The notes beneath the pieces were generated by a model, which did no database searches, was not told the origin of the DNA, and saw only the letters and a list, made by a program, of their open reading frames with translations. A program made the position numbers and the translations under genes. Shown in pieces: positions 20,854 through 23,459 of a stretch of DNA of 33,987 nt; the stretch's first letter is position 1, and each line of letters starts with the position of its first letter. This DNA is from a virus. Location: IMG/VR virus record IMGVR_UViG_3300029976_000059; one strand, written 5' to 3'.

Positions 20854-21708
20854 ATGACAACTATGAGTAACAAGCAATATTGGGGAGATAGAAGTCGTCA
20901 AGTGACAAGAGCTAAAATGCACACTAAAGAAATGCAAGAACAATTTGCATCTGAAATTGAAGCATCTATAGCTAATTCTTATGCCGCTACGGTTCTATCT
21001 TTTCCTACCTCACTACAAAAGACAAACGATTTAATGCGCTTAGAGCTGTGGCTAAACGATTTAAATACAACTGATGCTTTATTCAAGCATTATAGCCCAA
21101 ATGAAAAAATTGCAGTATTAAATTTCGCCTCCTTTGTGAAGCCAGGTGGTATGTTCTTGCAAGGCTCAACAGCACAAGAAGAGTCTATTTGCCATGATTC
21201 ATACCTCTATAACGTATTATCAGCATTTGAGGACTGGTATAAAGAAAATACTGTCTTTATTAATGATAAGCTATTCGCTGATAGAATGTTATACTGCAAA
21301 GATATATATTTCTTTAAGAAAAATGATTTAAGCAATCCCATTTCCGCAGATGTAATCACTTGCGCTGCTCCAAATATTAAGGGAGCCGTAAAAATTCAGG
21401 GACTAGATAAAATAAATTTATATCTCCGCAATTCAAAAGCACTAGATACTAGAATTCAATTTATCCTAGATTCCGCAGAATATAATCATATAAACACCCT
21501 TATTTTAGGAGCATGGGGATGTGGAGTATTTGGTCAAGACCCTGTAGAAGTAGCAAGTCTTTTTAAGAAACACCTTTGTAGAACTTACACTTATTTAAAG
21601 AAAGTTGTTTTTGCAATTCCTTTTAACGCAAACGACTTTAACCTATATGGTTTTTATAAAGTGTTTCAAAATAAGGAGTTAATCAATGAGTCATTATATA
21701 GCAACTGA
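20854..21708 (+). CDS. bacterial-type poly(ADP-ribose) glycohydrolase (PARG/DUF2263) macrodomain protein
   Basis: VLNFASFVKPGGMFLQGSTAQEESI fits the microbial PARG signature GG(G)-x8-QEE preceded by a NFAS macro motif; ATG at 20854 or 20863. Confidence 0.65.
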   Translation: MTTMSNKQYWGDRSRQVTRAKMHTKEMQEQFASEIEASIANSYAATVLSFPTSLQKTNDLMRLELWLNDLNTTDALFKHYSPNEKIAVLNFASFVKPGGMFLQGSTAQEESICHDSYLYNVLSAFEDWYKENTVFINDKLFADRMLYCKDIYFFKKNDLSNPISADVITCAAPNIKGAVKIQGLDKINLYLRNSKALDTRIQFILDSAEYNHINTLILGAWGCGVFGQDPVEVASLFKKHLCRTYTYLKKVVFAIPFNANDFNLYGFYKVFQNKELINESLYSN

Positions 21709-22462
21709 TTTGCATGGTGAATACAAACTTTGGGAACGAATAAGAGATTATTTAAAACCTAATGATGTTCTTTATTTCTTAGGAGACGCCGCAGACAGAG
21801 GTCCCGATGGGTTAAAAATTATGAGAGAATTACTTTCCAATCCAAGAGTAGTTTATCTAAAAGGCAACCATGAAGAACTCCTTATTAATACTATAAAAGA
21901 ATGGCTAGACCTTTCTTCGTGTTCTGATTATCCCCATAAACGTCAGAGCGCGCAGTCTCTACATCTAGCCAATGGAGGTCAAGCTACCCAAGAAGATTTA
22001 CTTCCAGGCTCCCATATAGAATGGGAATGGTATCTTCGCCAACTAGAAAATTTACCAGAAATTATAACTGTCACATCTCAAAATACTGGTAAAATAGTAT
22101 GCTTGTCTCATGCTGGGTGTGACCCAATAGATATAGGAAATAATACTTTTAAAAATAAATTTAATCAGCCTCTTCACGATAAGGATGGACCAAATCTGTG
22201 GCTCTGGAATAGGGAACATTTAATCCAACCTTGGCCGCAAGAATCCCGCTTTGAAAACCTTTACATTATTCATGGCCACACTCCAGTTCCCGCATTGGGT
22301 TATATTTCTTGCATTGATTATCCAGACCCAGACAAGACAAAAGAAATATTCATTTATGCTGATGGCCATAAGATTGACCTAGACTTACTATCTTTCCAAA
22401 CTAAGAAAGCAGTACTATATAATCTAGATAATATGGAGGTGGAAAAATATTTCAATGAGTAA
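21686..22462 (+). CDS. calcineurin-like (PPP-family) Ser/Thr protein phosphatase
   Basis: motifs TDLHGE (GDxHG-like), GDAADRG (GDxxDRG) and GNHE; RBS AAGGAG; the start overlaps the 3' end of the upstream gene. Confidence 0.75.
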   Translation: MSHYIATDLHGEYKLWERIRDYLKPNDVLYFLGDAADRGPDGLKIMRELLSNPRVVYLKGNHEELLINTIKEWLDLSSCSDYPHKRQSAQSLHLANGGQATQEDLLPGSHIEWEWYLRQLENLPEIITVTSQNTGKIVCLSHAGCDPIDIGNNTFKNKFNQPLHDKDGPNLWLWNREHLIQPWPQESRFENLYIIHGHTPVPALGYISCIDYPDPDKTKEIFIYADGHKIDLDLLSFQTKKAVLYNLDNMEVEKYFNE

Positions 22463-23459
22463 TGTTATTACTGCAATAGAAGTACATAGAGATATATTAT
22501 TGAATGATTTAAACTATTCTCCAAAATCTATTCTGGGAGTATTCTGCTATGGCTCCCAAAATTATGGTTTAGCTAATAAAAATAGCGATGTAGATACTGT
22601 AGCCATCTATCTTCCTACTTTTGAAGAAATGTGTCTCTGTAAAGAAAGATTATCAAAAGAATTTCATCTTCCTAATGGAGAACACATTGTTATAAAAGAT
22701 ATAAGAGAATATTCAGATATGCTTTCAAAGCAGAACATCAATTTCCTAGAAACTCTTTACACCCAATTTTACTGGCTAAATGATGAGTATGCTCAAATAT
22801 TCACAGAGCTATTTATCAATAAAAGAGATATTTACTCTTCTTTAAATATTAAAAAGATGTATACATCAATAGCAGGACAAATTATTCATACTGTTAAGCA
22901 AGATCCAGCAGATAATAAAAAATTAAGTAACGGGTATAGATTGCTATATTTATTGGAGAACTTTGAAAAAACTCATGATTACGAATCTAGTTTATCGCCC
23001 ATTGGTAAAGAGCATGATTTTCTATGGAATTTAAAATATAATAAAAGTAGCTACACCGAAAAAGAAAAACTTGATATGGCTTATGCTATAATTGATAAGG
23101 CCTTGGCTTACCAACAAAATTATTCTTCTTTAAAGACAACTGAGGCGGGGACCGCCCTACGCGCCCTCCAGACCGCGACTGTGGAGATTTTAAGGAAGGC
23201 TTGCGCGATAAATACGCCCCGCCTTACGCGGGTGGAATTTGAGCAGTATTTAACTAACGCGGAATCTACTGCTTTAGTGGCATTAATGCAGTCAGTTTAT
23301 CCAGAAGGCAATATATCAATTAATAAAGCTATAGAGCAATATCACATTTCCCGCCCTGTATTTACTTCTCTATTGGAAAAAATGGAAAAGTATGACATGG
23401 CAGAAATTAAAAAACAAGGTGTAAAAGGCACATACATTAAATTTAAGGAGACAAAGTAA
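22455..23459 (+). CDS. Pol-beta-superfamily nucleotidyltransferase with a helical C-terminal domain
   Basis: GSQNYGLANKNSDVDTV matches the G[SG]-x9-13-DxD NTase motif with a third acidic residue downstream; ATGA overlap with the upstream gene; RBS GGAGGTGG. Confidence 0.55.
   Translation: MSNVITAIEVHRDILLNDLNYSPKSILGVFCYGSQNYGLANKNSDVDTVAIYLPTFEEMCLCKERLSKEFHLPNGEHIVIKDIREYSDMLSKQNINFLETLYTQFYWLNDEYAQIFTELFINKRDIYSSLNIKKMYTSIAGQIIHTVKQDPADNKKLSNGYRLLYLLENFEKTHDYESSLSPIGKEHDFLWNLKYNKSSYTEKEKLDMAYAIIDKALAYQQNYSSLKTTEAGTALRALQTATVEILRKACAINTPRLTRVEFEQYLTNAESTALVALMQSVYPEGNISINKAIEQYHISRPVFTSLLEKMEKYDMAEIKKQGVKGTYIKFKETK

Follow-up and report, generated by a model that had tools for sequence, protein, structure and literature searches.

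Positions 20,854 to 23,459 of a 33,987-nucleotide (nt) viral sequence (IMG/VR record IMGVR_UViG_3300029976_000059; this whole stretch of DNA is referred to as the window) carry three overlapping genes at the head of an operon. The window covers part of the genome of a large gut phage. The three open reading frames (ORFs) encode a bacterial-type PARG macrodomain protein (ORF1), a stand-alone metallophosphoesterase of the PPP/lambda-phosphatase type (ORF2) and the Pol-beta nucleotidyltransferase RlaP joined to a winged helix-turn-helix domain (ORF3). On balance, the operon probably forms the 3'-end-cleaning arm of a phage RNA (mainly tRNA) repair island that counters RNA-damaging host defences. 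Within this arrangement the phosphoesterase and RlaP make up a firm core, to which the PARG is an optional addition. A PARG-type macrodomain in a phage RNA-repair island, a conserved PPP-RlaP pair and the fusion of RlaP to a CodY-type winged helix-turn-helix (wHTH) appear to be new; computationally predicted phage RNA-repair islands and a Deinococcus operon of PARG, ligase and phosphatase/kinase are already known.

The operon and its three leading proteins

ORF1 (20863..21708, plus strand, 281 aa; open frame 20806/20863-21708) was assigned to the bacterial-type PARG macrodomains (DUF2263/TIGR02452). The Pfam cut-off was passed for PF10021 PARG_cat_microb (E 4e-20, 73 bits vs a cut-off of 23.5), as was the NCBIfam cut-off for TIGR02452 (164.5 bits vs 50). 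The solved PARGs of Thermomonospora curvata (3SIG) and Deinococcus radiodurans (5ZDA) were matched by residues 80-254 at E ~1e-20. The microbial PARG signature described in a first-pass annotation, which was made from the sequence alone, was found intact (N87-F-A-S90, within LNFAS; G95-G96, eight residues, then Q105-E106-E107), and so was the diphosphate loop GAWGCGVFG, which begins at G216. All of these positions were invariant in an alignment of 18 homologues. A better alignment to non-catalytic macro families, which that annotation had named as the outcome that would count against a PARG, was discounted because the best match is to the catalytic PARG family and the QEE motif is intact. In keeping the QEE and diphosphate loops, ORF1 is like the bacterial PARGs (3SIG, 5ZDA and S. 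coelicolor SCO0909). It is unlike cellular PARGs in being phage-encoded, in sharing an operon with RNA-end enzymes and in having GGM for the classical GGG, the third glycine being replaced by methionine here and in most close homologues. The gene had been taken to begin at 20854, where an alternative in-frame ATG stands; to judge from the sequence context, the ATG at 20863 is the more likely start, since AGGA lies 8 nt upstream of it, homologues start there and the database entry is of 281 aa.

PARG homologues number in the thousands. Identity of ORF1 to cellular homologues reaches ~45 % at most (Lachnospiraceae and other Clostridia), and one closer relative (52 %) was found on an unplaced 967-bp contig. 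Among GenBank phages, PARG was seen only in huge ones, namely Lak megaphages, Bacillus phage G and two uncultured phages of >590 kb, with the exception of an unverified 23-kb human faecal scaffold (MT835651, the same as locus L008 below). No database record was found for the exact sequences of ORF1 and ORF3, and a megablast search of the operon region against GenBank phages gave zero matches.

ORF2 (21686..22462, plus strand, 258 aa) is a stand-alone PPP/lambda-phosphatase-like binuclear metallophosphoesterase, predicted to heal RNA ends that carry a 2',3'-cyclic phosphate or a 3'-phosphate. That a PPP-family phosphatase overlaps the PARG gene had been noted before and was confirmed: the motif set is complete (TDLHG, GDAADRG, GNHE, His142, His196/198) and invariant across 30 homologues. 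Matches were obtained to Pfam Metallophos and to phrog_246, 'NinI-like phosphatase' (3e-28), and the nearest solved relative by sequence was lambda phosphatase (E 8e-4). Bit scores missed the NCBIfam equivalog cut-offs by a wide margin (~32 bits vs 326-332 for PrpA/PrpB; 29 vs 176 for ApaH), and ORF2 was therefore placed in a separate clade. The match to phrog_246 makes it like the lambda Ser/Thr phosphatase (NinI; 1G5B), from which it differs by an extra insert of ~40 residues and by its genomic partners, RlaP and a ligase.

The binuclear metallophosphoesterase motifs of ORF2 are also like those of the phosphatase module of Clostridium thermocellum Pnkp (CthPnkp; 4J6O), and the ORF2 model fits this RNA-repair phosphatase at least as well as it fits lambda protein phosphatase, the likeness being one of fold only at 20 % identity. 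Unlike Pnkp-Hen1, ORF2 stands alone, with no kinase or ligase fusion, and no Hen1 was seen. The CthPnkp module is a Mn-dependent 2',3'-cyclic phosphodiesterase-monoesterase (PMC2190708, PMC3675462), and nucleoside 2',3'-cyclic phosphates are hydrolysed by both CthPnkp and lambda phosphatase (PMC2190708). Because both enzymes cleave 2',3'-cyclic phosphates, the modelled structure of ORF2 fits a role in RNA end healing; a protein substrate would fit it also.

ORF3 (22455..23459, plus strand) is a fusion of an RlaP Pol-beta nucleotidyltransferase (residues ~1-250) with a CodY-type wHTH (residues ~265-334). The first-pass annotation had placed a GS...DxD nucleotidyltransferase third in the operon. 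This holds, with the Pol-beta motif reading GSQNYG...SDVD, and the family can now be named, the Pfam cut-off for PF10127 RlaP being passed at 29.5 bits vs 23. At least 25 protein clusters share the fusion, which shorter relatives lack; the wHTH could serve in autoregulation or in nucleic-acid targeting. RlaP stands for 'RNA ligase-associating Pol-beta' in a comparison of jumbo phages, where the template-independent addition of nucleotides to RNA 3' ends is a prediction (PMC7824862). The association with RNA ligase holds here, an Rnl5-type ATP-dependent RNA ligase (31952..33139, plus strand) being encoded 8.5 kb downstream. Sequence matches gave this ligase an N-terminal OB domain and an adenylyltransferase domain and related it to Naegleria NgrRnl (E 3e-36) and to D. 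radiodurans DRB0094 (TIGR02306, 135 bits).

The genes of the operon overlap by 23 nt (ORF1/2), by 8 nt (ATGAGTAA; ORF2/3) and by 1 nt (TAATG; ORF3/4). Ribosome-binding sites are well spaced for ORF2 and ORF4; the GGAGG of ORF3 sits 16 nt 5' of its ATG, an unusually long spacing. Upstream lies an extended -10 promoter of the sigma-70 type (TTGATT-17-TGgTATAAT; 20806..20834, plus strand). It is one copy of a promoter family with the pattern TTGAnn-N14-TGnTATAAT, then ATAT and the ribosome-binding site AAGAAAGGAG, for which 16 matches were found in the window vs 0.58 expected, a number reached in 0 of 100 shuffles. The copies are nearly all intergenic and on the plus strand (e.g. 1842, 3198, 3878, 5900, 6357, 6662, 12433, 20806, 29657 and 31891). 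Gene overlaps and promoter counts thus support the earlier proposal of a single operon behind a family promoter; its extent had been drawn too short. The transcription unit extends past 23459 to an intrinsic-terminator-like hairpin followed by a T-run (24264..24288, plus strand), by way of ORF4, a small lipoprotein-like protein (23459..23746, plus strand; lipobox LSGC, DUF5052/phrog_2316), the Cys-rich ORF5 (23718..23948, plus strand) and the last operon gene, ORF6 (23953..24258, plus strand), a homologue of which stands downstream of RlaP in locus L011.

Linkage in viral and cellular loci

Counts from viral contigs refer to loci, labelled L plus a number, in which partner genes were sought within 10 kb; around PARG this was done by tblastn with the window proteins. 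An alignment-based PARG scan of IMG/VR found 373 viral contigs, and neighbourhood counts were made on the best 80 loci; a single-sequence PARG scan of viral contigs had given zero matches. The PPP scan found 128 viral contigs, of which 43 loci with close, full-length relatives were counted. Counts for the major vault protein (MVP) were made on 47 viral loci, and RlaP was scanned in reference genomes (64 loci). The co-occurrence counts ignore shared ancestry. In the window itself, a tRNA array is followed by a TROVE-vWA gene, a minus-strand block of tail and reverse transcriptase genes, the operon, and then the genes from a Thg1-like enzyme to the ligase.

RlaP was found within 10 kb of the phosphoesterase in 23 of the 43 PPP loci and directly downstream of it in at least 11; the inverted order, RlaP then PPP, was also seen. 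The same 43 loci held a ligase in 29 cases, TROVE in 14 and MVP in 12. Around MVP (47 loci), the partners were ligase (32), PPP (23), RlaP (19), Thg1 (17) and TROVE (7). Many RlaP-bearing PPP and MVP loci have a ligase within 10 kb, and so do L173 and L174. Relatives of RlaP reside on 50-200-kb contigs binned into metagenome-assembled genomes of animal-gut Clostridia and Bacilli. The stable core is the phosphoesterase-RlaP pair together with Rnl5, often accompanied by Thg1 and MVP.

Near the 80 best PARG loci, TROVE-vWA was found 19 times, RNA ligase 16, PPP 12, RlaP 11, Thg1 9, cREC ('cyclic-phosphate processing receiver') 7 and MVP 3; at least one repair marker was present in 26 of the 80 and at least three in 12. 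The nearest relative of the window is L011, a 139-kb contig with a tRNA array, TROVE, tail genes, PARG, PPP and RlaP-HTH in the order of the window, at identities of 43 % (PARG), 37 % (PPP), 43 % (RlaP-HTH) and 75 % (MVP). The order in L174 is PPP, RlaP-HTH, Band-7, MVP, four small ORFs, PARG overlapping Thg1, a metallophosphoesterase and Rnl5. In the L053 group, TROVE stands ~1.7-4.4 kb upstream of PARG and is followed, after PARG, by Thg1, an o147 homologue, RlaP, a metallophosphoesterase, cREC and a ligase. L080 and L085 have TROVE, MVP, an o147 homologue (L085 only), RlaP, a metallophosphoesterase, PARG, a weak RNA-ligase-like match (28-29 % identity) and PPP. PARG adjoins TROVE in L082 and L088, and in L027 (4799-17892) an Rnl5 ligase and an AAA_33-HD kinase/phosphatase are encoded 6 kb downstream of PARG. 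Beside the island, tRNA gene arrays were seen in five loci: the window, L011, L053, L072 and L082. When PARG is present in phages of this group it is an optional module inside the island.

PARG also occurs in other company. In an abundant group of ~90-200-kb phages (L012-L052, L027 among them) it stands between DNA methylases of the C5, N4/N6 and Dam types. Two smaller phage contigs, L008 (9213-11251) and L153 (7542-10708), carry PARG, an ORF of 120-130 aa and then PPP, and L153 has two more metallophosphoesterases upstream. The link between PARG and phosphoesterase may accordingly reach outside RNA repair as well. A Rec-like ORF between PARG and PPP in L008 was considered as a cREC and dropped, because it has no similarity to the cREC of the window and falls below the Response_reg cut-off. 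PARG is regarded as a portable gene because of its mobile-element and methylase settings and its presence in these smaller contigs, where tblastn with the window proteins found neither RlaP nor ligase.

A separate observation concerns three unannotated ORFs (136, 272 and 104 aa) that form a block at 1913-3573 of the window, 17 kb 5' of PARG; in L067 and L068 (8221-11140) the block directly flanks PARG. The 272-aa protein of this block ends in a Cys cluster.

Proposed function and competing explanations

Two known settings resemble the island. In D. radiodurans, the PARG DRB0099 is encoded together with a ligase and an HD-phosphatase/polynucleotide kinase in the operon DRB0098-DRB0100 (Lu et al. 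2025, PMC11833690). The window likewise has a bacterial-type PARG that is co-operonic with a predicted end-healing phosphatase and near a nucleic-acid ligase, and its ligase is related to the DRB0094 (Rnl5) family of the same species; the gene set of L027 (PARG, Rnl5, AAA_33-HD) is that of the Deinococcus operon. Unlike DRB0098-DRB0100, the window has a phosphatase of the PPP/lambda and not the HD type, no kinase, an added RlaP, and a setting in a phage with a tRNA array, MVP and TROVE.

The second setting is the phage RNA-repair island. RNA-repair systems built around RlaP, RNA ligases and partners were reportedly predicted by Burroughs and Aravind in 2016. Among the predicted parts listed by Iyer et al. 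2021 (PMC7824862) are RlaP, calcineurin-like phosphatases, Thg1, cREC and TROVE; that scheme casts calcineurin-like enzymes as 3' phosphatases, Thg1 as the enzyme that restores 5' nucleotides and cREC as the one that opens cyclic phosphates. The window is like these islands in bringing together RlaP, an ATP-dependent RNA ligase, Thg1, cREC, a calcineurin-like phosphatase, TROVE and a large tRNA set. MVP and Band-7 are absent from the part list of that paper, which mentions PARG 0 times, leaves the vault unmentioned and uses 'macro' only in other contexts. The window also differs from its islands in the fusion of RlaP to a CodY-type wHTH and in a tight PPP-RlaP pair, a pair that is not described there.

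The activity of bacterial PARGs on RNA comes from Lu et al. 2025 (PMC11833690), where they were the only tested hydrolases to reverse the 2'-OH RNA ADP-ribosylation made by RhsP2. PARGs also remove the ADP-ribose carried by phosphorylated ends of RNA and DNA, and they protect cells from RhsP2; on their own, bacterial PARGs shield E. coli from it (PMC11833690). Applied to the operon, PARG would hydrolyse ADP-ribose on the ribose 2'-OH or the terminal phosphate of an RNA, the metallophosphoesterase would open a 2',3'-cyclic phosphate and remove the 3'-phosphate to leave a 3'-OH, and RlaP would re-add the nucleotide or nucleotides lost from that end. This putative order matches the order of the three genes. 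The break would then be sealed by the Rnl5 ligase encoded 8.5 kb downstream, the Thg1-like enzyme would rebuild 5' ends, and TROVE-vWA, MVP and Band-7 might act as RNA-holding scaffolds. A further role for PARG, in Tpt1-dependent Appr>p processing, was considered and dropped: the window ORFs that were scanned gave no Tpt1/KptA, a 2'-phosphate is not left behind by Rnl5 ligation, and Appr>p chemistry belongs to MacroD/2H enzymes.

Several observations weigh against the proposed RNA-repair pathway. PARG was found in only 7 PPP loci (7 of 80; 7 also among the 43 with close, full-length relatives), 1 of 47 viral MVP loci and 2 of 64 RlaP loci of reference genomes, and 54 of the 80 PARG viral loci were without any repair marker by tblastn. 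Since most PPP, RlaP and MVP loci lack PARG, the island works without it. The linkage counts take no account of kinship, and accessory genes of large phages tend to cluster anyway. The closest cellular PARGs stand in mobile-element-like regions with orphan methylases, integrase, GmrSD_N and SNF2-methylase genes, and no repair genes were visible around these Clostridia homologues. Neither RlaP nor ligase was found by tblastn with the window proteins in L008 and L153. Finally, polynucleotide kinase, Tpt1/KptA and ADP-ribosyltransferase (ART) were not found in the window, although the contig stops 850 bp beyond the ligase.

Much of this would suit a PARG that is an autonomous counter-ADP-ribosylation (immunity) gene against host ART toxins acting on RNA, DNA ends or protein and that shares only early or accessory expression with the island, RNA repair being left to the phosphoesterase-RlaP pair. 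Such a PARG is rather unlikely, though it deserves the most attention among the alternatives, and it would differ from an RNA-repair PARG mainly in pathway coupling, not in chemistry. The orphan methylases, integrase and GmrSD_N of mobile elements around the Clostridia homologues, the DNA methylases on either side in the L012-L052 group, the absence from most PPP, RlaP and MVP loci and the protection of E. coli from RhsP2 by bacterial PARGs alone (PMC11833690) are all in its favour. Against this, PARG in these phages, where present, recurs within the repair island in no fewer than five different arrangements, and its gene overlaps a neighbour directly, PPP in the window and Thg1 in L174. The first-pass annotation had instead described an eraser module, taken here as three independent erasers, with PARG directed against DarT-type or protein marks, the phosphatase against Stk2-like phosphorylation and the nucleotidyltransferase against nucleotide messengers. 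An anti-defence role in the broad sense is plausible, whereas three separate erasers found no support and are improbable. The PARG family does consist of genuine ADP-ribose hydrolases, and ORF2 has complete PPP motifs and resembles lambda Ser/Thr phosphatase and phrog_246 'NinI-like phosphatase'. However, ORF2 scored ~32 bits against PrpA/PrpB cut-offs of 326-332, and in many phage contigs it pairs with RlaP and sits with Rnl5, Thg1-like, MVP and TROVE-vWA genes; the nucleotidyltransferase is RlaP, an RNA-ligase-associated family and not a messenger-related one; and the reversal of DarT DNA marks is credited to macrodomain (DarG/TARG1-type) or NADAR antitoxins, that of guanosine-base RNA ADP-ribosylation to NADARs alone and not to PARGs (Lu et al. 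2025, PMC11833690). The adjacency of PPP and RlaP and their linkage to RNA ligase, Thg1 and MVP would be left unaccounted for, and ORF1, ORF2 and ORF3 had no match in PADLOC-DB.

Routine maturation of phage tRNAs, in which RlaP would add CCA, Thg1 would add G-1 to a His-like tRNA and the phosphoesterase would trim ends, was considered as well and has a similarly small chance of being the function. None of the 22 tRNA genes called by ARAGORN in the array encodes its 3' CCA, tRNA arrays accompany the island in the five loci named above, and an odd His-like tRNA is present at 8890-8961. CCA-less tRNAs, however, are normally served by host CCA-adding enzymes, RlaP had no match to the Pfam CCA-adding families, and RNA ligase, 3'-phosphatase and PARG play no part in ordinary maturation; some island loci, such as L080, were also without a tRNA gene within the stretch fetched. 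Action on small molecules was judged to be highly improbable in the form in which PARG cleaves glycocyclic ADP-ribose (gcADPR) signals or poly-ADP-ribose and the metallophosphoesterase degrades ADP-ribose in the manner of ADPRibase-Mn. It would draw on the PARG-(small ORF)-PPP order of L008 and L153, where tblastn found no RlaP or ligase, and PARG cleaves bonds of the 1''-2' type found in gcADPR. Hydrolysis of ADP-ribose and cyclic ADP-ribose by some metallophosphoesterases is described in PMC3407115. RlaP is nevertheless a much more frequent partner of PPP than PARG is, and a role for the phosphoesterase as ADP-ribose pyrophosphatase partner was kept low because PPP tracks RlaP and not PARG; literature searches yielded no paper that treats gcADPR together with PARG, and none combining PARG with phage, Thoeris and macrodomain. 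That PARG would cleave the 1''-2' ribose-ribose bond of gcADPR as a TIR/Thoeris-type signal and the phosphoesterase then degrade the product is, taken by itself, improbable. An enzyme pair of this kind, whether directed at gcADPR or at 2'-OH or phosphate-end ADP-ribosylation of tRNA as the opening step of RNA repair, would destroy a host immune chemistry based on ADP-ribose that phages are not yet known to reverse.

The first-pass annotation had also presented ADP-ribose metabolism as a third vault-associated theme beside the MVP and TROVE homologues. The window is like the eukaryotic vault (MVP, TEP1 with its TROVE domain, PARP4, vault RNA) in having an MVP, a TROVE-type protein and, through PARG, ADP-ribose chemistry. 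It is unlike the vault in that PARG removes ADP-ribose and is a hydrolase, not a transferase of the PARP kind, and no PARP or ART match was found among the scanned window ORFs. According to a 2026 preprint the vault shoulder binds ADP-ribose and TEP1 is an NADase, which makes a vault-PARG theme attractive; with PARG near 1 of 47 MVP loci, it is not a regular association, and the theme is weak.

If PARG acts within phage RNA repair, RNA ADP-ribosylation would be an antiviral weapon common enough in gut Firmicutes to call for a dedicated eraser in large phages; this activity was demonstrated only in 2025, for an interbacterial toxin. The phosphoesterase-RlaP pair gives a two-enzyme handle on the purely computational idea that RlaP restores healed 3' ends. 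The presence of a bacterial-virus MVP and TROVE beside defined RNA enzymes could open the function of vault and Ro-type particles to experiment.

Other genes of the window

The tRNA array (3917..14064, plus strand) has 22-23 genes, of which 22 were called by ARAGORN and one further, at 9383-9455, was found by Rfam and missed by ARAGORN. A cREC gene (5959-6288, plus strand) and a PD-(D/E)XK gene (10411-10839, plus strand; PD-(D/E)XK_5/homing-endonuclease-like) lie inside the array, and a protein with an anthrax-lethal-factor-like metalloprotease domain is encoded at 4837-5796, between its first two tRNA genes. The tRNA at 8890-8961 was given a four-base anticodon, 'ggtg', by ARAGORN and has A at position -1; it is possibly a His(GTG)-like tRNA whose anticodon loop is unusual. 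The window also encodes a Thg1-like enzyme, of the family that adds G-1 to tRNA-His. ARAGORN also called a 94-nt tRNA-Ala(cgc) at 32888-32981, within the RNA ligase gene; lacking Rfam support, this call is probably spurious.

The partners of the operon in the island are all on the plus strand. Upstream, 14121..15638 encodes a TROVE-like (DUF2828) and vWA-like (DUF7788) protein. Downstream are the Thg1-like 3'-5' nucleotidyltransferase (24948..25754), the MVP homologue, which has a shoulder domain (26272-28788), a Band-7/SPFH protein (28785-29633), a phrog_990 phosphohydrolase-like ORF (30036-30479) and a second metallophosphoesterase (30662-31465), for which no solved sequence relative was found.

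A diversity-generating retroelement occupies 16786-20721 on the minus strand, with its reverse transcriptase at 16786-17976 and its template repeat at 18286-18387. The variable repeat (18997-19098) falls within the C-terminal end of a tail protein, encoded by the ORF at 18961-20721, and all mismatches between template and variable repeat are at template adenines. Between the operon and the Thg1-like gene, three successive small ORFs (24348-24946; 58, 77 and 64 aa) look paralogous and have in common the N-terminal motif E-E/D-I/V-x-x-I-I/L-x-x-Y/H-F.

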